A stretch of DNA of 25,766 nucleotides from Pirellulales bacterium (GTDB lineage: Bacteria; Planctomycetota; Planctomycetia; Pirellulales; PALSA-1355): assembly GCA_035503215.1 (NCBI GenBank), contig DATJTR010000117.1, forward strand, positions 1 through 25,766, written 5' to 3'. The stretch's first letter is position 1. Each line of letters begins with the position of its first letter. This document shows positions 1 to 22,525 of the stretch, in pieces. A program made the translations under genes and the position numbers. A model generated the notes under the pieces. That model did not search any database. It saw only the letters and a list, made by a program, of their open reading frames with translations, and was not told where the DNA came from.

Positions 1-482
1 TCCAAACGCCATTTTTCCGCTTTTTCCAAGCGGCACAGTTCGTCGAGTTGCCGCCGGGCTTCGAGTGGCCGGCGAGTGTGCCGCAGCAGGCTGGCTAGCA
101 TCAACCGGGCGTCAACGTCGCGGCTGTCTTCGGCCAGCAACTCGCCGAGCAGCGTCTCGGCTTCGAACCATGCGCCTTTTAAGTATTCCCCCAAAGCACC
201 GCGAAACAAGTCGTCGCGCGCCTGGCGTGCGGCGGCCGAATCACGCAATCCGCCCGACCAGGCCACAAACAGGCCACTTCCGGCCCAAATTACGGCGAGC
301 GCCACCCAGGCCACCAGTCGCACGGCCGAGGTGATTAGCTCGACCCACACGAGACTCGCGAGCAAGAGGCCATTGAGCAGGACGCCGAAACCGAGCGCCA
401 AGGCCAGCCCCGACCACGCTCCCTCAAACCAAAGTTGAGGCAGCCCAGGCCAAAGATACGCCGCATAGCGCAACACTCGCAT
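1..482 (-). CDS. Membrane-anchored protein with C-terminal TPR-like helical region (partial, runs off the left edge; missed by the ORF track)
   Basis: Manual translation from ATG at 482 gives MRVLRYAAYLWPGLPQLWFEGAWSGLALALGFGVLLNGLLLASLVWVELITSAVRLVAWVALAVIWAGSGLFVAW...DDLFRGALGEYLKGAWFEAETLLGELLAEDSRDVDARLMLASLLRHTRRPLEARRQL. It has two to three hydrophobic segments, then a TPR-like pattern. Purine-rich GAGGGAG upstream. No stop before the window edge. Confidence 0.8.
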   Translation of the reverse strand, partial: MRVLRYAAYLWPGLPQLWFEGAWSGLALALGFGVLLNGLLLASLVWVELITSAVRLVAWVALAVIWAGSGLFVAWSGGLRDSAAARQARDDLFRGALGEYLKGAWFEAETLLGELLAEDSRDVDARLMLASLLRHTRRPLEARRQLDELCRLEKAEKWRL

Positions 483-608
483 CCGCTTCCCGCTCCCTCG
501 CTCTTCGCCAGGGCCATGGGCTCGATCCTCGTGGCCCTTGCCGCCCCGACCGACCGACAATCCGGGGGCGGGCTTGGACGCCACGGAATTCTAGCCCTTT
601 AACGCCCG

Positions 609-629
609 ATATTCAAGGCAACTGAATAT
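609..629. promoter_or_regulatory. Perfect 7-7-7 inverted repeat ATATTCA-N7-TGAATAT, candidate operator
   Basis: AT-rich dyad in the divergent intergenic region 483-864 of a GC-rich genome. No cognate regulator is identifiable. Confidence 0.4.
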
Positions 630-864
630 GCTGCTTGGAGTTACGCATAAAACGATCGACCGATGACGGTTCCCACGGCCAGAACGACCGCTGTTAAGTG
701 GTAAGGATTGTATCGGCTTTTCGGGCGGCTGGGGCACCGCGAATCCGCCAAATGACGGATTTCACCCCGAGGTGCCGATCTTCGCTCGTCTCGCCCTTTA
801 CCCCGAGTCGGGCCGCTGGCACAGTGAAGGTTTCACATTGTTATCTGTAGCAAAGACGATCGCG

Positions 865-2490
865 ATGGCCCACGAGTTCACCCCCGCCGCCGAGCGAGCC
901 TTGGTCTATGCCGGCGGCTGGCGAATGGCCGACGGACCGAACGACTCAGGTGCCCAGGAGTTGGGGCCAGTTGCTCTGCTCTTGGGGCTGCTGGCCGAGC
1001 CGGAATGCCGGGCGGCGGTGCTGGCGGCCGCCCGCGGCGTCGACAAGCCCGGGGTGCTGGCGCGGTGGCCGGCAGTGGAAGCGGTTGCACCGTCTCCGAC
1101 GTCGCGCGTCGAGCGGTTGAGCGCTCAACTTCACGAAGTGCTGGCGATCGCCGAGGAGCATTTGGCCGAGTACCCGCAGCCGCACGTGCTGGCGACCGAG
1201 CATCTCTTGCTCGGTCTGGCCGCGGGACACAACGAAGTGGCCGAGTGGCTGACGAGCCGCGGTTGGGACACGGCGAACCTGGCCGCCGAAATCGATCGGC
1301 TGGCCGGCCATGACCGCGGTCCCCTCCCCTTCGAATTCGATACGCCCGAGGTCGCCGCGGCAGGCGGTTCACAGACGAGCGGAAGTGCAAGCGGGGACCA
1401 AATCGTCAGCAAACCTGGCGACGATCCAGACAACGCGGATCAACTGTCCCTTGATCCCGAAGAGATCGGCCGCCTGCGAATCGTCGATGCCGCCAGTAAC
1501 CGAGCCGGCGAGGCGATGCGAGTCCTGGAAGATTATGCACGGTTCGTACTCGACGACCGCCACCTGGCCGGCGAGTGCAAGGCGCTGCGGCATGCTCTGG
1601 CGGCGGCCTTGGCGATCTTCCCGACGGCCCAGCGACATGCGGCGCGCGAAACGCGGGCCGACGTGGGGACCACGCTCACTGTGGCGAGCGAACAATCGCG
1701 GGCTGACCTGCGCGCCGTCGTTACGGCCAATTTCAAACGGCTGGAACAGGCGCTGCGCAGCCTCGAAGAATATGCCAAGAGCGCGTCGGCATCCACCGCC
1801 GCGGCACTCGAACCGTTGCGTTATCGGACCTATACGCTCGAACGGGCGATCGGCATCACCGCCGACAGCCTCGATCGCCTGGCGATGGCGCGTTTATACG
1901 TGCTCATCGACGGTCGCGAGTCCGCCGCCGCGTTGGCCGATTGGATCGACCTGCTCGTCGCCGCCGGCGCCGACGTGATCCAGCTGCGCGACAAACGGCT
2001 CTCCGATCGCGAACTGCTTGCGCGAGCGCACGTCGTGCGGCAGAAGACCGTGGGAACGCCAGCGCTGTTCATCGTGAACGATCGGCCCGACATTGCGCGG
2101 TTGGCCCGGGCCGATGGCGTGCACGTCGGCCAGGACGAACTGGGCGTGAAGGAAGCCCGCACGATCGTGGGACCCGACGCGCTGGTCGGCGTTTCGACTC
2201 ACAGCCTAGAGCAAGCCCGGGCGGCGGTGCTCGACGGGGCCAACTACATCGGCGTGGGGCCAGTCTTTCCGTCCGGGACGAAAGAGTTCGCCGAGTTTCC
2301 GGGTTTGGAATTGCTGCGGGCCGTGAGGGGCGAGATCCGATTGCCGGCCTTCGCCATCGGCGGAATCGACGCGGGCAATCTGGCCGCCGTGCGGGCGTGC
2401 GGGTTCGAGCGCGTCGCCGTGAGCGGGGCCGTGACCGCCAGTGCGCAGCCGGCCGATGCGGTGCGCGAACTGAAGCGGCTGCTGGCCTGA
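865..2490 (+). CDS. thiE: Thiamine-phosphate synthase with N-terminal Clp-N (Clp repeat) domain and ThiD2-like domain
   Basis: C-terminal TMP-TENI motifs (LYVLID, IQLRDK, IVNDRPDIA, DGVHVGQDE, GVSTHS, YIGVGPVFPSGTK, FAIGGI). Middle RIVDAASNRAGEAMRVLEDYARF...ANFKRLEQALRSLEEYAK resembles the cyanobacterial/planctomycete ThiE N-extension. N-terminal FTPAAERAL...LLLGLL...LATEHLLLGL is Clp-repeat-like. Start placed at ATG 865 (the ORF track uses GTG 772). Confidence 0.9.
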   Translation: MAHEFTPAAERALVYAGGWRMADGPNDSGAQELGPVALLLGLLAEPECRAAVLAAARGVDKPGVLARWPAVEAVAPSPTSRVERLSAQLHEVLAIAEEHLAEYPQPHVLATEHLLLGLAAGHNEVAEWLTSRGWDTANLAAEIDRLAGHDRGPLPFEFDTPEVAAAGGSQTSGSASGDQIVSKPGDDPDNADQLSLDPEEIGRLRIVDAASNRAGEAMRVLEDYARFVLDDRHLAGECKALRHALAAALAIFPTAQRHAARETRADVGTTLTVASEQSRADLRAVVTANFKRLEQALRSLEEYAKSASASTAAALEPLRYRTYTLERAIGITADSLDRLAMARLYVLIDGRESAAALADWIDLLVAAGADVIQLRDKRLSDRELLARAHVVRQKTVGTPALFIVNDRPDIARLARADGVHVGQDELGVKEARTIVGPDALVGVSTHSLEQARAAVLDGANYIGVGPVFPSGTKEFAEFPGLELLRAVRGEIRLPAFAIGGIDAGNLAAVRACGFERVAVSGAVTASAQPADAVRELKRLLA

Positions 2491-2496
2491 GCGTCG

Positions 2497-3135
2497 CTAC
2501 TTCTTCAACAGGTCGTCGACCAGTCGCTTCAACTGCTCGCCGACCCCTTCTTCGTAGCCGATCCACACGCCGCGGATGATTCCTTTTTGATCGAGGACGA
2601 TCGTCGTGGGAAAGCCGAAATAGGGTTCGTCGAGCACCATCGCCACCGCGCGGCGTGTGTTCTCGGCCCGGTCGGCATAGGTCGGCACCAGTATTTGCCG
2701 AGCGGCGAGAAACTCGGTTGTCGCTTCCCGCAGCGGCCCCAGATCGGTGTCTTCGTTGTTGCACGAAACCAGCAGCAAGCGCGCGTCGGGCTGGTCGCGC
2801 AGCTCGACCGACAACGCGGCGAGCTCGGGGAGTTCCTCCCGGCACGGTCCGCACCAGGTGGCCCAAAAATTGACGATCGCCACCTTGCCGGCCAAATCCT
2901 TCAGCGAGACGTCTTGGCTGTCGCCGGTGAGGCCCTGCAGTTCGAGACCCGGCAACGCTCTGCCCACCGCCGGGTACTTCGTGCCCATCCCGTCGGCGCC
3001 GCGGTAGCGCGAAGTCATGAATTTCCCGCACACGATCGCCACGCCGGCGGCTATCAGAAGCACGAGCCAGAACGAGCCATTCCGCTTGGCGGGGGAAGGC
3101 GAGGCGTCGAACGAATCTTGATCGTACTGGCTCAT
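2497..3135 (-). CDS. TlpA/ResA-like membrane-anchored thiol-disulfide oxidoreductase
   Basis: IVNFWATWCGPCREELP active site, FPTTIVLDQKG cis-Pro loop, N-terminal TM helix FWLVLLIAAGVAIVCG. Start placed at MSQY (3135). Confidence 0.9.
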   Translation of the reverse strand: MSQYDQDSFDASPSPAKRNGSFWLVLLIAAGVAIVCGKFMTSRYRGADGMGTKYPAVGRALPGLELQGLTGDSQDVSLKDLAGKVAIVNFWATWCGPCREELPELAALSVELRDQPDARLLLVSCNNEDTDLGPLREATTEFLAARQILVPTYADRAENTRRAVAMVLDEPYFGFPTTIVLDQKGIIRGVWIGYEEGVGEQLKRLVDDLLKK

Positions 3136-3241
3136 GAATGAATCCTGGACGGTTGCCTGAACAATTCGGTTGCGATGCCGCAACGAGCATCGCGCCCGGG
3201 TTGCCGTGACGCGCTGTTGCCGCGGCTGGCTGGGCGCGGCA

Positions 3242-3270
3242 GTACATTATAGGCGGCGATGGGATACAAT
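3242..3270. promoter_or_regulatory. Overlapping divergent sigma70-like elements between the tlpA-like and CYTH genes
   Basis: Plus strand: GTACAT-N17-TACAAT (3242-3270). Minus strand: perfect TATAAT at 3246-3251 with no good -35. Confidence 0.35.
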
Positions 3271-3334
3271 TCCGGTCGTGGCCCGCGGGGCAGGATGGCC
3301 CTACGCGGTTGGCCGAGGCCCAGATGGACGGATC

Positions 3335-3886
3335 ATGCACTACGAAGTGGAACAAAAATTCCCGCTCGACACTCCGGCCGCCGTCGAGGCACGCTTGGCG
3401 GCGATCGGGGCACGGCCACAAGGCCAATGCCAGCAGGTCGACCTTTATTTCGCCCACCCAGCCCGCGACTTTGCCAAAACCGACGAGGCCCTGCGGATTC
3501 GCCGGGTCGACGGCCAGACGCGGATCACTTACAAGGGACCGAAGATCGATCGCGAGACCAAGACCCGGCAAGAGATCGAGCTGCCCCTTCCCGCTGGCGC
3601 GACGACGGCCGACGATTTCGCCGGCTTGCTCGAGGCGCTCGGATTTTCGCCGGTGGCCGAAGTGCGGAAGGTGCGGCGGACGTTCGCGCTCGAGTGGCTA
3701 GGGCACGAAGTCGAGGCGGCGCTCGACGACGTGGCGGGCTTGGGACACTTCGTCGAGCTCGAGCTGTCGGCCGACGACGAAACGCTGAGCGCTGCTCGCA
3801 CGGCGCTTTCCAGTTTGGCTGCCCGCTTGGAATTGGGGACAAGCGAGCGCCGCAGCTATCTAGAATTGCTGCTCGAGCGGCGCTGA
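3335..3886 (+). CDS. cyaB: CYTH-domain protein (class IV adenylate cyclase / triphosphate tunnel metalloenzyme)
   Basis: N-terminal ExExK (YEVEQKF), QVDLYF, DEALRIR, ITYKGPK, EVRKVRR, DDVAGLGHFVELE, C-terminal RRSYLELL. Start placed at ATG 3335. Confidence 0.88.
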   Translation: MHYEVEQKFPLDTPAAVEARLAAIGARPQGQCQQVDLYFAHPARDFAKTDEALRIRRVDGQTRITYKGPKIDRETKTRQEIELPLPAGATTADDFAGLLEALGFSPVAEVRKVRRTFALEWLGHEVEAALDDVAGLGHFVELELSADDETLSAARTALSSLAARLELGTSERRSYLELLLERR

Positions 3887-3893
3887 GAGGCGG

Positions 3894-6047
3894 TCAGGCC
3901 GCTTTTTGGGCCTGCCCGTCGGTCGGCTCTTCGTCGGCAATCGTCAACGACTCGTCGGCCGATCCGCGGTGGATGAGCGTGCGGGTGGGATAGGGGAATT
4001 CGATTCCCACCTCGTCGAATTTGTTCTTGATCCGCCGCAACATTTCGCGACGCACGATCCATTTCTTCAGCGGCCGGGTCTTGATGACGAAGCGGACGAC
4101 GACGGACGACTCGCCCAATTCCTCGACGCCGAGGATTTCGGGGTCCTCCAGAATCAATCCGACGAATTCCGGATCGCGGCGCATTTCGCGGGCCAGCTCG
4201 GCCAGTACGTGCATCACGTGATCGATGTTCTCGCCGTAGCCGACGCCGACATTGAACACTGCCCGCGACCAGCCTTGCGTGGAATTGCTCACGCGGTTGA
4301 TTTCGCCGTGCGGGATGAAATGGAGGCGTCCCTCCCAGTCGCGAAGTACGGTCATTCGCAGGGTGATGCGTTCGACCTGGCCGGACACGTCGTTGATTTG
4401 CACCACGTCGTTGACCATGTACTGCTGTTCGAGCAGGATCATGAAGCCGCTGAAGAAATCCTTGACCAGGGCTTGAGCACCGAAGGCCACGGCGAACCCG
4501 ATGATTGCCAGCCAGCTCAACAAGCGGCCGGTTTCCACGATGCCCGCCTCGTTGAGCAGCATGACGATGCCGCCGGCAAACACGAACACGCCGGCCGCAT
4601 TGTGGACGACGCCGATCAAAGTCCGCGAGCGGTTCTCGCGGTCTTCGGCGCTGTTGCGTTTGGCGCGCCGGGCCAAGAGGGTGATCAGGCGGGCTTCGAT
4701 GCGGCGGAACAGCCACAGCACGCTGGCCAGTGAAACGAGGATGCAGGCGATCCGCGAGCTGTGCTCCTGAAACCACTCTTCGACATTGGCCCAGGCCAAC
4801 GGATTGAGCAGGTCCTTCAGGTGATTCTCCGCCCCGCGGGCTTCGGCGCGGCGCTGTTCGGCTTCTTCCAGGGCGGCAATCTGTTCGGCATGGACGTTGG
4901 CCAGTTCCGAATGCAGATCGTCGAGCTGCCGGTTGTGCTGTGCGACTTCAGCTTGGGCTTCGCGCAGCCGGGCCTTCGCCTCGGTAATCTGTTGGCGGAG
5001 CTGCGCCAGTTCGGCCGGAGCGACACCGGCAACCAGTTTTTTGTGAAAGTCGGCCTCGATGCTGGCCAAGGTCGATTCGATGTTAGCCACGCGCCCCTGG
5101 GCCGTTTCGAGCAAGGTGCGTTCGAGCACGATGTAGCGGTCGAGGATTTCGGCCCGCTCGGTGGCCGATTGGGCCGCGACCTGGGCCTGTTGAGCGACGA
5201 CGCTTTTCTTTTTGGCCTCCTTTTCGGCGGCCGTGAGTTGATTGCTTTTGGCCTCCGAAGGCAAGACGGGAGCCAGCGAATTCAAGCTCGGCTCGGCCGC
5301 CATCGCCGGCACCGTCAGCGGCGTGAGCGTGGGAATCATCGAACCGACGATCGCGGTGACCACCTGACTATCGACGCTCGCTGCGGCCGCGGCATCGGCG
5401 GCCGCCGGCTTGGCCGGGGCAGCTTCGCGCGAGTTCGCTTCGGCCGCGACACCCGGCACGGCCGAGGGGATATCGGCGGCGGGGTCGGCCGGCTTGAGCA
5501 GGACATCGAGCGCCTGGCGGTCGCTGGCCATCTTGGCTTCGAGCGTGGCGATCGAGGTTTGCAAAGCCTTGCGCTGGCGGATGGCCAATTCGAAGCGTTG
5601 TTTGGCCAGGTCCCATTTGGCCGTGAGCTCGGACGGCTTGGCACGCACTGCATCGGCGTCCGGGGTCGAACCGGCCTTGCGCTCTCCGTCGGCTTGCCGC
5701 CGGGCGTCGAGCTGGCCGTCGAGTTGCTTGAAGTCGGCGTCGGCCTCTTGGTATTCCTTCTCCAGATTGGCCAGATCGGCTTTCAGTTCGCCGAGATGTT
5801 TCTGATCGGAATCGAGCGTCCGCTGCAGCCTGGTAATCCGCTGCGCATCGGAAAGGCGCGCGTCGGCCGCTTCGGGAAGCGTCCCGGCCGTGAGCAAAAT
5901 CGGAGCGGCTGGGGATGGGTTGTTGTCGCTGGCCGAGAGCCCTGTCCGGTCGGCATCGGCCGACGCAGCGCATGCCGGCAGTTCGGCGAGCGCAAAGAGG
6001 CAAGCCAAAGCGAAGAACATCCCGACGGCGACAAAACGATCCCGCAT
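3894..6047 (-). CDS. MscS-family mechanosensitive channel with signal peptide and long N-terminal coiled-coil region
   Basis: C-terminal IGFAVAFGAQALVKDFFSGFMILLEQQYMVNDVVQIN..GQVERITLRMTVLRD..G.LHFIPHG is the MscS/YbiO-like core. The N-terminus has a hydrophobic signal and about 400 aa of heptad-rich helical sequence. Start at MRDRF (6047) or MFFAL (6020). Confidence 0.88.
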   Translation of the reverse strand: MRDRFVAVGMFFALACLFALAELPACAASADADRTGLSASDNNPSPAAPILLTAGTLPEAADARLSDAQRITRLQRTLDSDQKHLGELKADLANLEKEYQEADADFKQLDGQLDARRQADGERKAGSTPDADAVRAKPSELTAKWDLAKQRFELAIRQRKALQTSIATLEAKMASDRQALDVLLKPADPAADIPSAVPGVAAEANSREAAPAKPAAADAAAAASVDSQVVTAIVGSMIPTLTPLTVPAMAAEPSLNSLAPVLPSEAKSNQLTAAEKEAKKKSVVAQQAQVAAQSATERAEILDRYIVLERTLLETAQGRVANIESTLASIEADFHKKLVAGVAPAELAQLRQQITEAKARLREAQAEVAQHNRQLDDLHSELANVHAEQIAALEEAEQRRAEARGAENHLKDLLNPLAWANVEEWFQEHSSRIACILVSLASVLWLFRRIEARLITLLARRAKRNSAEDRENRSRTLIGVVHNAAGVFVFAGGIVMLLNEAGIVETGRLLSWLAIIGFAVAFGAQALVKDFFSGFMILLEQQYMVNDVVQINDVSGQVERITLRMTVLRDWEGRLHFIPHGEINRVSNSTQGWSRAVFNVGVGYGENIDHVMHVLAELAREMRRDPEFVGLILEDPEILGVEELGESSVVVRFVIKTRPLKKWIVRREMLRRIKNKFDEVGIEFPYPTRTLIHRGSADESLTIADEEPTDGQAQKAA

Positions 6048-6388
6048 AGCGTTCGCCTTAGCCCAAAGCGAAGTGTTCGGCTGGCCTCGCCCCCCATCAA
6101 TTGGTGGGGTGAAACGACCGGGGAAGGGGGCGGGGAGTATAGCGAGGCGAAGCCCGGGGCTCAACGGCGAAAATCGCCGTCGCAGGGCCGGGCTGGCACC
6201 CTGCGGTCAACCGCGCGAGCGCACGTGAGTGAGAGTTCGGTTGGCGGCCGATCCGCTTGAATTCGTGGGCGGTGATTTGGTCCATCTTTTGCTGTTTCGT
6301 TGATCGGCCCGTGCGTGGGATCTAAAATCGAGTTAGGCCAGGCGGGCACGGTTACCCCATGAGGGACGCCAAAAGCGCCAATGCTTTC

Positions 6389-18123: not shown

Positions 18124-18567
18124 TCAAGATTCCAAGGGAAGCGTCTGCCAGATTTGTTCAACGAGTTCGTCCATGGCCGCCCAATGCCGGCTGGTGGCGT
18201 GGCGGCCGAGATGCCGCCGGGCCAGCCGCACCACGGCCGGTGCTTCGCCGCGGCCGCAGCAAACCTGCACGGCACCGAGTTCGCTGGCAAGTGCCGCCTC
18301 GTCGGCATCTTCGCGATCGAGCAGCACCACGACCGGGGCCTTGGGGTAGCGGCGTCCGAGGGTGTCGACCATTTCAGCCGCCTGATCCCGTCGCTGGGCG
18401 CTCCAGGCCAGGGCCACCAGGCTTTCGGGCGCGTCGGCAAGCCGTGCCAAAGCATCGGCCGGGCGACGCGTTTCGACGATCCGCAGCGGCTTGTCACCCG
18501 CAGCCTGCCGTAACGCGGCCGCCCAGCGGCCGGTCGGTTCGCAAACGATGAGTGCGGGACGAGACAT
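18124..18567 (-). CDS. Receiver (CheY)-fold-like protein with degenerate phosphorylation site
   Basis: LIVCE...WAAAL / ADALARL...SLVAL / YPKAPVVVL...AALASELGAVQV follows the alternating beta/alpha receiver layout. Ends 17 nt before mrp. Start placed at MSRPAL (18567). Confidence 0.6.
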   Translation of the reverse strand: MSRPALIVCEPTGRWAAALRQAAGDKPLRIVETRRPADALARLADAPESLVALAWSAQRRDQAAEMVDTLGRRYPKAPVVVLLDREDADEAALASELGAVQVCCGRGEAPAVVRLARRHLGRHATSRHWAAMDELVEQIWQTLPLES

Positions 18568-18773
18568 TAAAGGCTGCCAAAGACCAAGGAACGACTCGCC
18601 GCACTTCACGCGGCCGATCAGGCGAGAGTCATCCTAGGCTAGCACGGCGACGCCCCGCAAGCCACGGCCGGCGAGGCGCACCCGAAGATGGTATGCCCCT
18701 CGATTCCTCGGTTAAAATCAATTTCAGGATGGCTACAGCTTGTCGCACGCCTCCAGTCACGGGATGCCGAGCC

Positions 18774-20780
18774 ATGTACGAACGCTTTACCGACCGCGCC
18801 CGCAAGGTGATGAAACTGGCCAACGAGGAAGCTCAACGCTTCAACCACGAATACATCGGCACCGAGCACTTGTTGCTCGCGCTCGTCAAGGAGGGAAGCG
18901 GCACTGCGGCCGCCGTGCTCAAGAATCTCGACATCGATCTGGGCAAAATCCGGCTGGAGGTCGAAAAGCTTATCCCAAGTGGCCCTGATATGGCCGCGAT
19001 TGGCAGGCTTCCGCAGGCCCCGCGAGCCAAGAAAGTGGTGGAGTACGCGATGGAAGAAGCCCGCTTCCTGAACCACAACTATGTCGGCACCGAGCACTTC
19101 CTGCTGGGACTATTGCGCGAGGAGGAAGGGGTGGCGGCACACGTCCTGATGAACCTGGGGCTGACGTTGGAACAGGTCCGCCAGGAAGTGCTCAACCTGC
19201 TGGGACGCGGCCTTGCCCCGGCCGCCGCGGAAGATGCGGATCACGAGATCGGCGAGGCCGCACGCCGCCGCAACCGCGAAGGCAGAGGGATGTACGATCG
19301 CTTCACCGACCGCACCCGCAAGGTTATGGAGCTGGCCAACCAGGAAGCGCAGCGCTTTAACCACGAGCACCTCGGCACCGAGCACATCCTGCTGGGGCTC
19401 GTCAAAGAAGGGAGCGGCGTCGCGGCCAATGTACTCAAAAACCTCGACATCGATTTGCGCAAAATCCGACTGGAAGTCGAAAAGGTCATTCAAAGCGGAC
19501 CCGACATGCTCATGGCGGGCAAGCTGCCACTTACCCCGCGGGCCAAAAAAGCGATCAATTACGCTTTAGAAGAAGCCCGCAATCTGAACCACAACTACGT
19601 CGGCACCGAACACCTCCTGCTCGGCATGCTCCGCGAAAAGGAGGGGGTCGCCGCGCGGGTGCTGATCGGGCTGGGGTTGACGCTGGTCGAAGTCCGCCAC
19701 GAAGTGCTCAACCTGCTGGGCCACGTCGCGGAACCCGCGGCCGAGGCAGCCGGAGGCGTTGCAGAACCGGCTGCCGGCGAGGCCACTCGCGTCGAGAGCG
19801 CAATTCTTCGCAGCATGCCGTTGACCGCCCGGGCGCAAAAGGTTTTCCAATTGGCCAACGAGACCGCGCAGCGGCTCGACAGCCGCACCGTCGAGCCCGA
19901 GCATGTGCTGTTGGGGCTGCTCGACGAGGGGAGTGGCGCGGCGCTGCGGGTGCTGAAGCAGTTGGGAATCGACTTGCGCAAGCTGCGGTTGGAATTCGAA
20001 AAGATTGTGCAAAGCGAAGCAGGCCAAGAGCCGAGCGACCCCGCCTCCCGCGAACTTGGGACGAAAAAGACACTCGGGCGGGCAATCCACGAGGCGATGG
20101 AACTGGGTCACCCGTTCATCGGCACGGAGCACATCCTGCTGGGCCTGCTGAGCGAACCGGACGACGTGGCACGGCGGGCGCTTTCGAACGTGGGACTGAC
20201 GCTAGAGGAACTCCGCCCGGCGGTCGCCCGGGTGCAAAAAGGCGATTTCGCCGCGACCGTCGATCGGCTGACGGTGCCCGAGCGCGTGCAGCCGTGGTCC
20301 ACGACAGGCCGATATGCCCAGTTCACGGATCGTGCCCGCGACGTCCTGCGATCGGCCAACGACGAGGCGGCACGCTTCAATCACGAATACATCGGCACCG
20401 AGCACATTCTCTTGGGACTGATCGAGGAAGGGACCGATTGGTACTCGACCAATGGCGCAGGCAGGGTGCTGGTGAATCTTGGCATCGACCCGCGCAAGGT
20501 CCGCCGGGAAGTCGAAAAGCTCATCCAATATGGCCCCGACGCGGCGACGGTCGGCCGCCTGCCGCAAACCCCGCGGGCGAAACAGGTGGTCAACTACGCG
20601 ATCGAAGAGGCCCATTGGCTGGAGCACAAGCACGTCGAGCCCGAACATCTGCTGCTGGGCCTGGTGCGCGAATGCGAAGGGGTGGCTGCCCAGGTGCTGA
20701 TAAACCTGGGCCTGAAACTGGATGCGGCGCGAGCGGAAGTGCGGAAGCTCATCGGCGGCGGAAGCGAAAGCGCGGGCTGA
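18774..20780 (+). CDS. Protein of four tandem ClpC-type double-repeat N-domains, no AAA+ module
   Basis: Four units start MYERFTDRARKV (18774), MYDRFTDRTRKV (19290), LTARAQKV (about 19821) and YAQFTDRARDV (20313), each with two [G/E][T/P]EH.LL[G/A] motifs. No Walker A/B. Stop follows unit 4. 668 aa. Confidence 0.92.
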   Translation: MYERFTDRARKVMKLANEEAQRFNHEYIGTEHLLLALVKEGSGTAAAVLKNLDIDLGKIRLEVEKLIPSGPDMAAIGRLPQAPRAKKVVEYAMEEARFLNHNYVGTEHFLLGLLREEEGVAAHVLMNLGLTLEQVRQEVLNLLGRGLAPAAAEDADHEIGEAARRRNREGRGMYDRFTDRTRKVMELANQEAQRFNHEHLGTEHILLGLVKEGSGVAANVLKNLDIDLRKIRLEVEKVIQSGPDMLMAGKLPLTPRAKKAINYALEEARNLNHNYVGTEHLLLGMLREKEGVAARVLIGLGLTLVEVRHEVLNLLGHVAEPAAEAAGGVAEPAAGEATRVESAILRSMPLTARAQKVFQLANETAQRLDSRTVEPEHVLLGLLDEGSGAALRVLKQLGIDLRKLRLEFEKIVQSEAGQEPSDPASRELGTKKTLGRAIHEAMELGHPFIGTEHILLGLLSEPDDVARRALSNVGLTLEELRPAVARVQKGDFAATVDRLTVPERVQPWSTTGRYAQFTDRARDVLRSANDEAARFNHEYIGTEHILLGLIEEGTDWYSTNGAGRVLVNLGIDPRKVRREVEKLIQYGPDAATVGRLPQTPRAKQVVNYAIEEAHWLEHKHVEPEHLLLGLVRECEGVAAQVLINLGLKLDAARAEVRKLIGGGSESAG

Positions 20781-20807
20781 CGGGGCGCACTGCCGGCTTA
20801 TACGCAG

Positions 20808-20900
20808 TTTCAAAACCGGCGGGGACTGTCCCAAATATGCGGAGCCCGCGAGGCAAATTAAGACTGTCCGACTGTCCCCCTCTCCCAGCCGGTTTTGAAA
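20808..20900. mobile_element. 93-bp MITE/REP-like element with 13-bp terminal inverted repeats and flanking CAG direct repeat
   Basis: TTTCAAAACCGGC (20808-20) and GCCGGTTTTGAAA (20888-900), with CAG at 20805-07 and 20901-03. Three internal GACTGTCC copies (20824, 20862, 20870). Confidence 0.65.
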
Positions 20901-20906
20901 CAGCCG

Positions 20907-22382
20907 CTACGGCTGCGGGCGGAACTTTTCGCGGTCTTCTTCCAGCCCGAGCTGCACCAGGCGGCGATAGAGGCGCGGCCGGGTCAGGCCTAACAGGTGC
21001 GCGGCGCGGCTTTTGTTTCCCTTCGCCCGGGCGAGCGCCCGCTCGATGATTTCGATTTCGATTTTCGCCAAGAGGCCCGCCAGATCGACCGGCTCGTCGC
21101 GGCGCTGCGGCCGGCCGGCGGCGTCGGCGGCCAGGTGGATCTGCCTGGGCAGATCGCGAGGCCCGACGTGCAGGTCGGCCGCCCGGTCGTGGGCCTCGCG
21201 GACCACGGTGGCCAACTCGTCAAGATTGCCGGGCCAGGAATACGCGGCCAGCGCGTCGAGGGCTTCGGGCGTGAAGCCGGCCAGTTGGCGGCGGGCCGTC
21301 GCGTTCGTTTCTTCCAAGTACAGTTGGGCCAAGAGCGGCAGATCCTCCAGCCGCTGGGCCAGCGGCGGCAGCTCGATCGTCAGCGTCGAGAGCCAGGCGG
21401 TGAGATCGGACCGCAGGGTGCCGGCGGCCACGAGCTCAGCCGGCGGGCGCTCGGCCGTGGCGACGACGCGCCACGAGGCCAGCGAGCCGGCGAACATCGA
21501 CACGGCCGCTTGGGCTTCAAGTGATAGGCGATCGACGCCAAGCAGCAGCAGCGTGCGCCACGCTTCGGTCGGCGGGGTGCGGGCCAGTCCACCGAGCGTG
21601 GCGATCAATTGCTCGGCGTCGATCGAACCGCAGGCGACCGGCACGAGCTGGCCGGTCGAATCGGCGGGCGAGCGATAGTGGATCGCCCGAGCGACATGCT
21701 CCTTGCCGGCGCCCGGCGGCCCAACAACCAGCACGTTCGCCGGGGCGGCGGCCGCCAGCGACACTTGGGACCGCACGCGGGTGGCCGCCGCGCTCGAGCC
21801 GACCATCCGCTCCAGGCGGTAGCGGCCGGCCAGACGATGCCGCCAGCTCGCGAGCGCCGCGTGCAGCGATTCGGCCGAAGCGCCGTCGGCAGGCTCGGAA
21901 TCGACCGGTGCGGAAGCATCGACCGCGTCGACCACGACCAACAGGCCGGCCGGGGCGGATGCGACGGCCGCGGAGAGCAGATCGGCGCCTGCGAGCGTAC
22001 TTCCCTCGCCCGACAACTCCGCAGCGGGCGCGCCGGGCGAAAGGGGCAGAAAATCGGCCTGGCGAAAGACCAGCTCGCCGCGCAGGTCGATTGCCGACAC
22101 CCAACCGCGACCGGCCGAGCCGGCCAACGCCGTCGGCGGCGGGCACAGCCGGGCCGCGGCGGCCGCCGGACCGACCAGAGTCGCCGCGGCCGCTCGATCG
22201 TCGGCCGTGGGTCCATACCGGCAGGTTTGGCCGACCAGTTGTTCCTCGGACACGCCCGCCCAAGCCGCGCACGCGGCGTTGCAATAGACGATTTCGTGAC
22301 GATCGTCGATCAAATACACCGGGCGGGCGGCGGCCGCGAAATGCCGAACCAATTGCTGAGCGGTGGTGCGGGGGCGAGGCAT
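20907..22382 (-). CDS. PAS + degenerate sigma54-activator-type AAA + Fis-type HTH transcriptional regulator
   Basis: N-terminal PAS (VYLIDDRHEIVYCNAAC), Walker A GPPGAGKE, WPGNLDEL sensor II region, C-terminal GNKSRAAHLLGLTRPRLYRRL HTH. GAFTGA loop and Walker B are missing. Start placed at MPRPR (22382). Confidence 0.85.
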   Translation of the reverse strand: MPRPRTTAQQLVRHFAAAARPVYLIDDRHEIVYCNAACAAWAGVSEEQLVGQTCRYGPTADDRAAAATLVGPAAAAARLCPPPTALAGSAGRGWVSAIDLRGELVFRQADFLPLSPGAPAAELSGEGSTLAGADLLSAAVASAPAGLLVVVDAVDASAPVDSEPADGASAESLHAALASWRHRLAGRYRLERMVGSSAAATRVRSQVSLAAAAPANVLVVGPPGAGKEHVARAIHYRSPADSTGQLVPVACGSIDAEQLIATLGGLARTPPTEAWRTLLLLGVDRLSLEAQAAVSMFAGSLASWRVVATAERPPAELVAAGTLRSDLTAWLSTLTIELPPLAQRLEDLPLLAQLYLEETNATARRQLAGFTPEALDALAAYSWPGNLDELATVVREAHDRAADLHVGPRDLPRQIHLAADAAGRPQRRDEPVDLAGLLAKIEIEIIERALARAKGNKSRAAHLLGLTRPRLYRRLVQLGLEEDREKFRPQP

Positions 22383-22525
22383 CGGAAAACGGCCTGCAAG
22401 GGAAACGAGCGGCCCGCACGAGCAAAAACGCGCGGCGCGCGGGCGATGCGCTTCAGAATACTTCCGCCCGGGGCGAGACTCCAGCCAAGCCGCGGCGTGG
22501 GCCGAGATCACGACCGATCGCGGCT

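Follow-up and report, generated by a model that had tools for sequence, protein, structure and literature searches.

A planctomycete protein of four ClpC-type N-domains without an ATPase: a candidate multivalent receptor for phospho-arginine-tagged proteins

Tagging with phospho-arginine (pArg) is a bacterial counterpart of ubiquitin-type degradation marks, and the only established readers of this mark, to our knowledge, are the N-domain of ClpC and, recently, ClpC2. A protein built solely of such N-domains raises the question of what a cell does with readers that carry no motor. We addressed this question for P0001, the product of a four-N-domain gene on contig DATJTR010000117.1 of the Pirellulales bacterium assembly GCA_035503215.1. 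The window, that is the whole stretch of DNA analysed, is this entire 25.8-kb contig (25,766 nucleotides), the longest of the 792 contigs of a metagenome-assembled genome (MAG; G000) that is 79% complete. The stretch was present in two public runs, both labelled as wetland metagenome; RNA sequencing runs were looked for, and none was listed. We propose, tentatively and at somewhat less than an even chance, that P0001 may be a multivalent receptor acting in trans, which buffers or holds ligands of the ClpC N-domain, chiefly unfolded proteins tagged with pArg. The observations behind this proposal are the architecture of the gene, its predicted fold, purifying selection, the pocket markers, the McsB, ClpC and ClpP of the lineage, and the operons of sister genes; from these we infer ligand binding and the direction of the effect on proteolysis.

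The open frame spans 18552..20780 on the plus strand, and the ATG at 18774 gives a protein of 668 amino acids (aa). This ATG was taken as the probable start codon of P0001. The first residues encoded from it match the start of planctomycete ClpC, and the 74 codons on its 5' side overlap a divergent gene and resemble the translation of non-coding high-GC DNA. Pfam detected Clp_N in eight stretches of P0001 (E 1.3e-118), equal to four complete ClpC-type N-domains, and our own domain hidden Markov model (HMM) found four full-length N-domains scoring 198-270 bits. Both results, together with the open frame, bore out the preliminary description of the gene, which had read its 668 aa as four double-repeat Clp-N units. 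Its motif counts matched exactly as well: GTEH occurs six times (aa 29, 105, 201, 277, 450 and 541) and EPEH twice (aa 374 and 622), and both FTDR.R (aa 5, 177 and 517) and PRAK (aa 83, 255 and 600) occur in units 1, 2 and 4. The parts of the gene are listed below with unit boundaries from the domain HMM, identities to the ClpC N-domain of a second genome of the same genus (G001, hereafter the congener), the state of the two pArg sites by the markers described further on, and, for the linkers, the predicted local distance difference test score (pLDDT) of the structural model.

18774..20780, plus strand: four-N-domain gene (P0001), open frame with translation of 668 aa, eight Pfam Clp_N stretches, no AAA+ module
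18774..19211, plus strand: unit 1 (aa 1-146), about 82% identity to the congener ClpC N-domain; site 1 intact, site 2 altered (Thr82Ala)
19212..19289, plus strand: linker 1 (aa 147-172), rich in Ala and acidic residues; pLDDT below 50 at aa 145-172
19290..19727, plus strand: unit 2 (aa 173-318), about 81% identity; sites 1 and 2 both intact
19728..19808, plus strand: linker 2 (aa 319-345); pLDDT below 50 at aa 318-346
19809..20246, plus strand: unit 3 (aa 346-491), with about 50% identity the most diverged of the four; ClpB-like EPEH in repeat 1, TPRAK segment replaced with a 5-aa insertion; site 1 intact, site 2 degenerate (EPEH, TPRAK lost)
20247..20309, plus strand: linker 3 (aa 492-512); pLDDT below 50 at aa 492-514
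20310..20762, plus strand: unit 4 (aa 513-663), about 64% identity; 5-aa loop insertion in repeat 1, EPEH in repeat 2; site 1 degenerate (EPEH), site 2 intact

No motor accompanies these units. Pfam found no other significant family in P0001, no AAA family, and no UVR or M-domain-like part, and the NCBIfam models of ClpB, ClpA, ClpK and ClpG matched at their N-terminal parts only and far below their cut-offs. The frame ends with a TGA stop at 20778-20780, a search with full-length ClpC downstream of this stop gave no AAA+ match, and the next gene is a convergent one for a sigma54-type activator (20907..22511, minus strand). The absence of an AAA+ module and the clean stop, which the preliminary description had also noted, therefore held in each of these searches. 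Class I Hsp100 unfoldases are defined by one or two AAA+ ATPase modules, and P0001 has none.

The AlphaFold2 model, which was built on an alignment of 12 sequences, showed four domains with eight helices each. The pLDDT was mostly 85-94 in units 1, 2 and 4 and 70-85 in unit 3. The predicted template modelling score was 0.31, no confident packing between domains was seen, and the linkers were disordered. P0001 is predicted by this model to be beads on a string, with independently folded domains. In sequence comparison, unit 1 matched the solved N-domains of ClpC and ClpC1 with E-values of about 1e-44 to 1e-46, and the solved ClpC2 and ClpC3 with 1e-14 to 1e-19 only.

A tandem array in a metagenomic contig could be an assembly chimera or a functionless, decaying duplicate, and the preliminary description had named an assembly artefact as a reason to discard the finding. 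The low coverage of about 5-7x, the dispersion of the MAG over so many contigs, and the presence of just two units in the congener gene would suit this explanation. We compared the unit copies with each other, and found that their DNA identity is 63-83%, with a synonymous divergence (dS) of 0.77-1.38 and a ratio of nonsynonymous to synonymous divergence (dN/dS) of 0.21-0.36. These values indicate old, selected copies rather than collapsed or duplicated reads. Over all unit pairs and units versus ClpC, dN/dS was 0.14-0.36, indicating that all four units have been maintained by purifying selection, in a frame that stays open over 668 codons. As an independent assembly we used the Logan contigs of the source run. 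Exact pieces without mismatches and at even depth (about 5-7x) covered 18500-18869, 18840-19493, 19657-20402 and 20456-21000; the second of these bridges units 1 and 2, and the third bridges units 2, 3 and 4. In the second sample, exact 151-nucleotide pieces crossed the linker between units 1 and 2 and the junction of linker 2 with unit 3. All three unit junctions are thus bridged by exact contigs, two of them in both samples. Two stretches, 19494-19656 in unit 2 and 20403-20455 in unit 4, have no long supporting piece, and no single record spans the whole gene; both stretches flank spots where sequence words are common to many organisms. Other four-unit relatives exist (P0003, P0005 and P0013). 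Taking copy divergence, dS, dN/dS and the junction-spanning contigs of two samples together, an artefact is unlikely as the origin of the four-unit gene, and we consider a chimera or decaying duplicate highly improbable.

A particular chimera model was also examined, in which the true gene would consist of unit 1 and a hybrid of the first repeat of unit 2 (U2a) with the second repeat of unit 4 (U4b), like the 2-unit gene of the congener. It was rejected because the junctions are bridged and because the second unit of the congener is not closer to such a chimera: its identity is 45.9% to U4b, 56.2% to U2b and 63.0% to U1b.

Whether the units could read pArg was judged from the residues of the pocket. 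The N-terminus of helix 1 and the loops a2-a3 and a5-a6 together make up the pArg pocket, and a change of the pocket Thr to Ala abolishes binding in ClpC2 (PMC13345244). In ClpC, Glu32 and Glu106 are crucial determinants of the two sites, and the Glu106 site is the most important for activation (PMC12583610). Pocket residues were taken from these two papers and are given in planctomycete numbering, with Thr6 and Gly105-Thr106-Glu107 as the markers of site 1, and Thr82 and Gly29-Thr30-Glu31 as those of site 2. Counted by these sequence markers only, five of the eight sets in P0001 are intact, and no unit is without an intact set. All eight half-repeats have retained the Glu of TEH, and all four units the equivalent of Lys85. 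We also scored 99 motor-less domains from 40 homologues: both marker sets are present in 61, a single set in 25 and neither in 13, and few positions of these domains are as well conserved as those of the markers. The ClpB-type N-domains of the phylum have xPEH in repeat 1, without Gly-Thr, suggesting that the markers discriminate between the two types and that the EPEH variants look ClpB-like.

The pathway that sets and uses the mark is widespread in the lineage. McsB was found in 143 of 151 genomes of the phylum and in 5/5 genomes of the family, including the congener, and ClpC in 28 of 30 relatives as well as in the congener and 5/5 family genomes. The MAG itself encodes ClpP1/ClpP2, HslU, and a ClpB that is cut at the contig end. 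Contigs of this MAG break at Clp-N-coding DNA (window 1-500, C672 and C117); the ClpB on C672 is cut just before Walker A and thus lacks its N-domain. Assemblies may fall apart at such places because the community shares sequence words of the ClpC N-domain that are nearly identical.

P0001 belongs to a sporadic planctomycete family of motor-less Clp-N genes, often tandem, that were spun off the ClpC N-domain. Its closest relatives in the databases come from planctomycete genomes and metagenomes; they lack a motor too, comprise 2 to 4 units and are deposited under generic names, and a search of the literature for papers on such tandem Clp_N proteins in planctomycetes turned up none. These uncharacterised "Clp protease N-terminal domain-containing proteins" share with P0001 the tandem motor-less array, with 39-57% identity over most of the length, but differ in unit number and in added parts, which in some of them are UVR, an Avd-like four-helix bundle, Uma2, ThiD2-ThiE, CsrA or a 500-aa tail. 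In addition to the four-unit relatives named above, a three-unit one was found in Planctomyces sp. SH-PL14 (P0019). P0003, the closest full-length relative (L051, 8001-11471), has 1156 aa, with four Clp-N domains followed by the 500-aa tail, in which Pfam found no match. Its neighbourhood consists of unrelated genes and has no context in common with that of P0001. In a sample of 100 genomes of the phylum, the ClpC-type N-domain was present in 100/100, and by eye extra short-frame Clp-N copies were seen in about one fifth and tandem copies in about six. Motor-less ClpC N-domain genes are therefore common, and four units in one gene are an uncommon variant among them. From order to order, the N-domain of planctomycete ClpC hardly varies, and the domain tree is star-like around ClpC branches of zero length, with clear within-protein duplications in some members. 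The star-like tree suggests that the arrays may be repeated independent spin-offs; domain phylogeny was also tried as a means to separate an ancient array from recent internal duplication, and the tree did not resolve the two.

Some sister genes lie within the pathway itself. In two other planctomycetes, rows of mcsA-mcsB-clpN-clpC were found (L053 of G148, 555-5492, minus strand; L054 of G032, 1500-6201, plus strand), in which a single-unit motor-less Clp-N gene sits between mcsB and clpC. In G033 (L055), a 2-unit Clp-N gene is located directly upstream of a frameshifted clpC. Judged from gene order, the mcsA-mcsB-clpN-clpC operons would link the motor-less family to the arginine-phosphorylation pathway. 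In the two operon-encoded single units that were checked, the site 1 markers are kept and the repeat-1 Thr of site 2 is lost, which recalls ClpC2, where one of two sites is conserved.

On this basis, P0001 would be a soluble chain of four ClpC-type N-domains that works in trans and without an ATPase. Its ligands would be above all the pArg marks set by the McsA/McsB kinase on misfolded proteins, and a probable second ligand would be unfolded segments, bound at the hydrophobic groove of the N-domain. Several intact pockets on flexible linkers could provide avidity for multiply phosphorylated clients, which would be held or buffered, so that their delivery to ClpC-ClpP would be delayed or dosed. 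We can also imagine a bolder version, to which we give a slim chance: the tetravalent pArg reader might reversibly cross-link multiply phosphorylated misfolded proteins and, needing no ATP, serve as a "pArg holdase" or as the scaffold of condensates in which marked clients are kept apart from ClpC-ClpP, with the unit number (two in the congener, four here) tuned by tandem amplification.

Several observations weigh against P0001 as a receptor of pArg-tagged proteins. The markers of three sites out of eight have changed, by Thr82Ala in unit 1 and by EPEH in units 3 and 4, so that the pArg pockets claimed by the preliminary description stand at five sites but not at these three, the two EPEH sites being ClpB-like. 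The TEH motifs double as helix caps, and their conservation is therefore not specific proof of a pocket. The preliminary description had further proposed that P0001 buffers pArg-tagged proteins and that mcsA/mcsB and clpC should be looked for; the frequency of McsB and ClpC among the relatives and the sister-gene operons agreed with this idea, but neither ClpC nor McsB was found in the 79% complete MAG. Incompleteness is the most likely reason for their absence, because both proteins are so frequent in the relatives, phylum and family counted above, and because of clpC synteny: the first 500 nucleotides of the window align to the congener region adjoining clpC. From this alignment, clpC would lie about 0.28 kb beyond the left end of the window and about 19 kb from P0001. 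The gene of P0001 adjoins neither mcsB nor clpC here. The adjacency of sister genes to clpC could merely record their birth by local duplication. The neighbours of P0001, namely ApbC, the sigma54-type activator and NuoM-like genes, are uninformative on function. The congener shares this gene order (NuoM, NuoM, sigma54 activator, ClpN, orf, ApbC ... M50, LpxB), where its ClpN has only two units and a frameshift; in two other genera of the family, about 620-750 bp separate the activator from ApbC, with no Clp-N gene between them. The 2-unit gene in the congener and the empty slot in the other genera indicate an insertion specific to the genus, and P0001 is therefore not a core component of the pathway.

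P0001 was compared with known systems. The N-domain of ClpC/ClpC1 (B. subtilis, S. aureus, M. tuberculosis; PDB 5HBN, 3WDB, 6CN8) has the same double Clp_N repeat and eight-helix fold as the P0001 units, but P0001 carries four domains per chain and lacks the AAA+ modules, the M-domain and the ClpP-docking part of ClpC. Actinobacterial ClpC2 (Rv2667 family; PDB 8AD9, 9P2P) and ClpC3 (8B9O) are likewise motor-less and keep at least one pArg pocket, as P0001 does by markers, and the analogy to ClpC2 drawn in the preliminary description was apt in this respect. ClpC2 binds pArg at about 5 uM and was proposed as a holder of pArg-labelled proteins (PMC13345244), and mycobacterial ClpC2 is a ligand sponge for cyclomarin and rufomycin (PMC10030653, PMC13345244). 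It consists of one Clp-N and an N-terminal dimerising four-helix domain and is a DNA-binding autorepressor, whereas P0001 has four Clp-N domains and nothing else, and starts directly with Clp-N. P0001 resembles its own ClpC far more than it does ClpC2, from which we conclude that it arose independently. Plastid ClpT1 and ClpT2 are also small motor-less auxiliary subunits of the Clp protease, but unlike P0001 they are single-domain, eukaryote-specific, and associate with the ClpP ring (PMC7966870).

By sequence, the resemblance to ClpC2 does not extend to the binding site of cyclomarin. Binding of this compound depends for the most part on a pair of Phe, F2/F80 of ClpC1 and F96/F172 of ClpC2 (PMC10030653), and F80Y weakens it about tenfold (PMC13345244). 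In P0001 the equivalents of the pair are Tyr/Gln, Tyr/Leu, Ser/non-aromatic and Tyr/Gln in units 1 to 4, and planctomycete ClpC itself has Tyr and Gln at these positions. A cyclomarin decoy in the strict sense was rejected because the Phe pair is missing, and the suggestion to that effect in the preliminary description found no support.

A decoy in a wider sense, that is a sponge for natural products or for phage or competitor proteins that target the ClpC N-domain, still has the ClpC2 precedent behind it (PMC10030653, PMC13345244). An N-domain that is nearly invariant across planctomycete orders is an attractive target. The motor-less genes were gained sporadically in particular lineages, amplified in tandem and evolve faster, and their tree is star-like, all of which would fit accessory or conflict-type genes; fusions to Uma2 nuclease or to Avd-like four-helix bundles occur in some relatives. 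We nevertheless regard it as rather improbable: P0001 and planctomycete ClpC both lack the Phe pair, compounds or effectors that target ClpC are not known from this phylum, the sequences of units 3 and 4 are by now far removed from that of the supposed target, and no resistance-type or biosynthetic genes occur in the context of P0001. P0001 might instead be a regulator, whose free N-domains bind the M-domains or AAA1 of ClpC, or titrate autophosphorylated McsB or adaptors, and so shift ClpC between resting and active states or tune the kinase. In ClpC, contacts of the M-domains with Lys85 and the pArg pockets of the N-domain stabilise the resting state, which is repressed (PMC12583610), and 4/4 units of P0001 have the equivalent of Lys85. 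Some relatives have a UVR motif between Clp-N domains, as in the M-domains of ClpC and in McsA, and sister genes lie between mcsB and clpC. P0001 itself, however, has no UVR or M-domain-like part, and units that are 18-50% diverged from a nearly invariant ClpC N-domain are hard to reconcile with precise intramolecular mimicry, so that such a regulator seems unlikely to us.

It could also be that pArg has no part, and that P0001 is an ATP-independent scaffold or holdase that works through its hydrophobic grooves only, as the N-domains of ClpB/Hsp104 do, or that its role is unrelated to Clp proteolysis. The groove of ClpC and ClpB N-domains binds unfolded proteins such as casein (PMC12583610), and fusions of Clp-N to unrelated enzymes, such as the ThiD2-ThiE fusion in the window, suggest a general interaction module. 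As the pArg markers are conserved above average positions and sister genes are linked to mcsAB, we hold this, too, to be fairly improbable, and keep the trans-acting pArg receptor as our preferred reading.

The region between P0001 and its divergent neighbour, an open reading frame (orf) at 18124..18609 on the minus strand, contains one conserved element, found by aligning the upstream regions of the MAG and the congener:

18626..18644, no strand assigned: non-coding block GAGTCATCCTAGGCTAGCA, which contains CCTAGG and is conserved with the congener

This 19-nucleotide block is a candidate operator, or a candidate promoter that the two genes would share, and was the sole hint of an operator for autorepression like that of ClpC2. 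A scan of the locus for promoters and terminators gave nothing above chance and no sigma70-like site. The divergent orf encodes 161 aa and overlaps the start of ApbC/Mrp by 4 nucleotides. The congener has it too, with conservation that probably begins at an internal Met (MSRPALIV...) as the start, and Pfam found no match in it. The sigma54-type activator on the other side of P0001 (20907-22511, minus strand) has a weak PAS, an AAA lid and HTH_8. Its Sigma54_activat match covers only positions 1-75 of the 168 of the model, and the ATPase core may therefore be degenerate.

In the congener, a single-contig genome (L043/L044), split and frame-shifted matches were seen in the ThiE fusion, GT2, the sigma54 activator, mcsB and the 2-unit Clp-N gene. 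Such frameshifts are typical of uncorrected long-read indels, and the apparent pseudogenes of this genome are therefore not to be trusted. The fusion of Clp-N and ThiE that the preliminary description had reported was found in the window at 772..2490 (plus strand). Its Clp-N is degenerate (aa about 35-185; weak Clp_N), with TEH lost from repeat 1 and ATEH in repeat 2; ThiD2 and TMP-TENI (thiamine-phosphate synthase) come after it. In the congener, the ClpN-ThiE gene is the divergent neighbour of clpC, and a metagenomic relative (P0039) has a near-ClpC-identical N-domain in the same ThiE fusion.

A protein that consists solely of four reader domains would make it easy to test whether free multivalent readers serve cells to buffer or sort tagged proteins, and a true four-reader protein would be a ready-made affinity reagent of high avidity for pArg. 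The near-invariant ClpC N-domain appears to have repeatedly shed motor-less copies that evolve fast and in some cases lie inside mcsAB-clpC operons, which suggests that outside Firmicutes and Actinobacteria the ClpC system has a layer of regulation yet to be explored.

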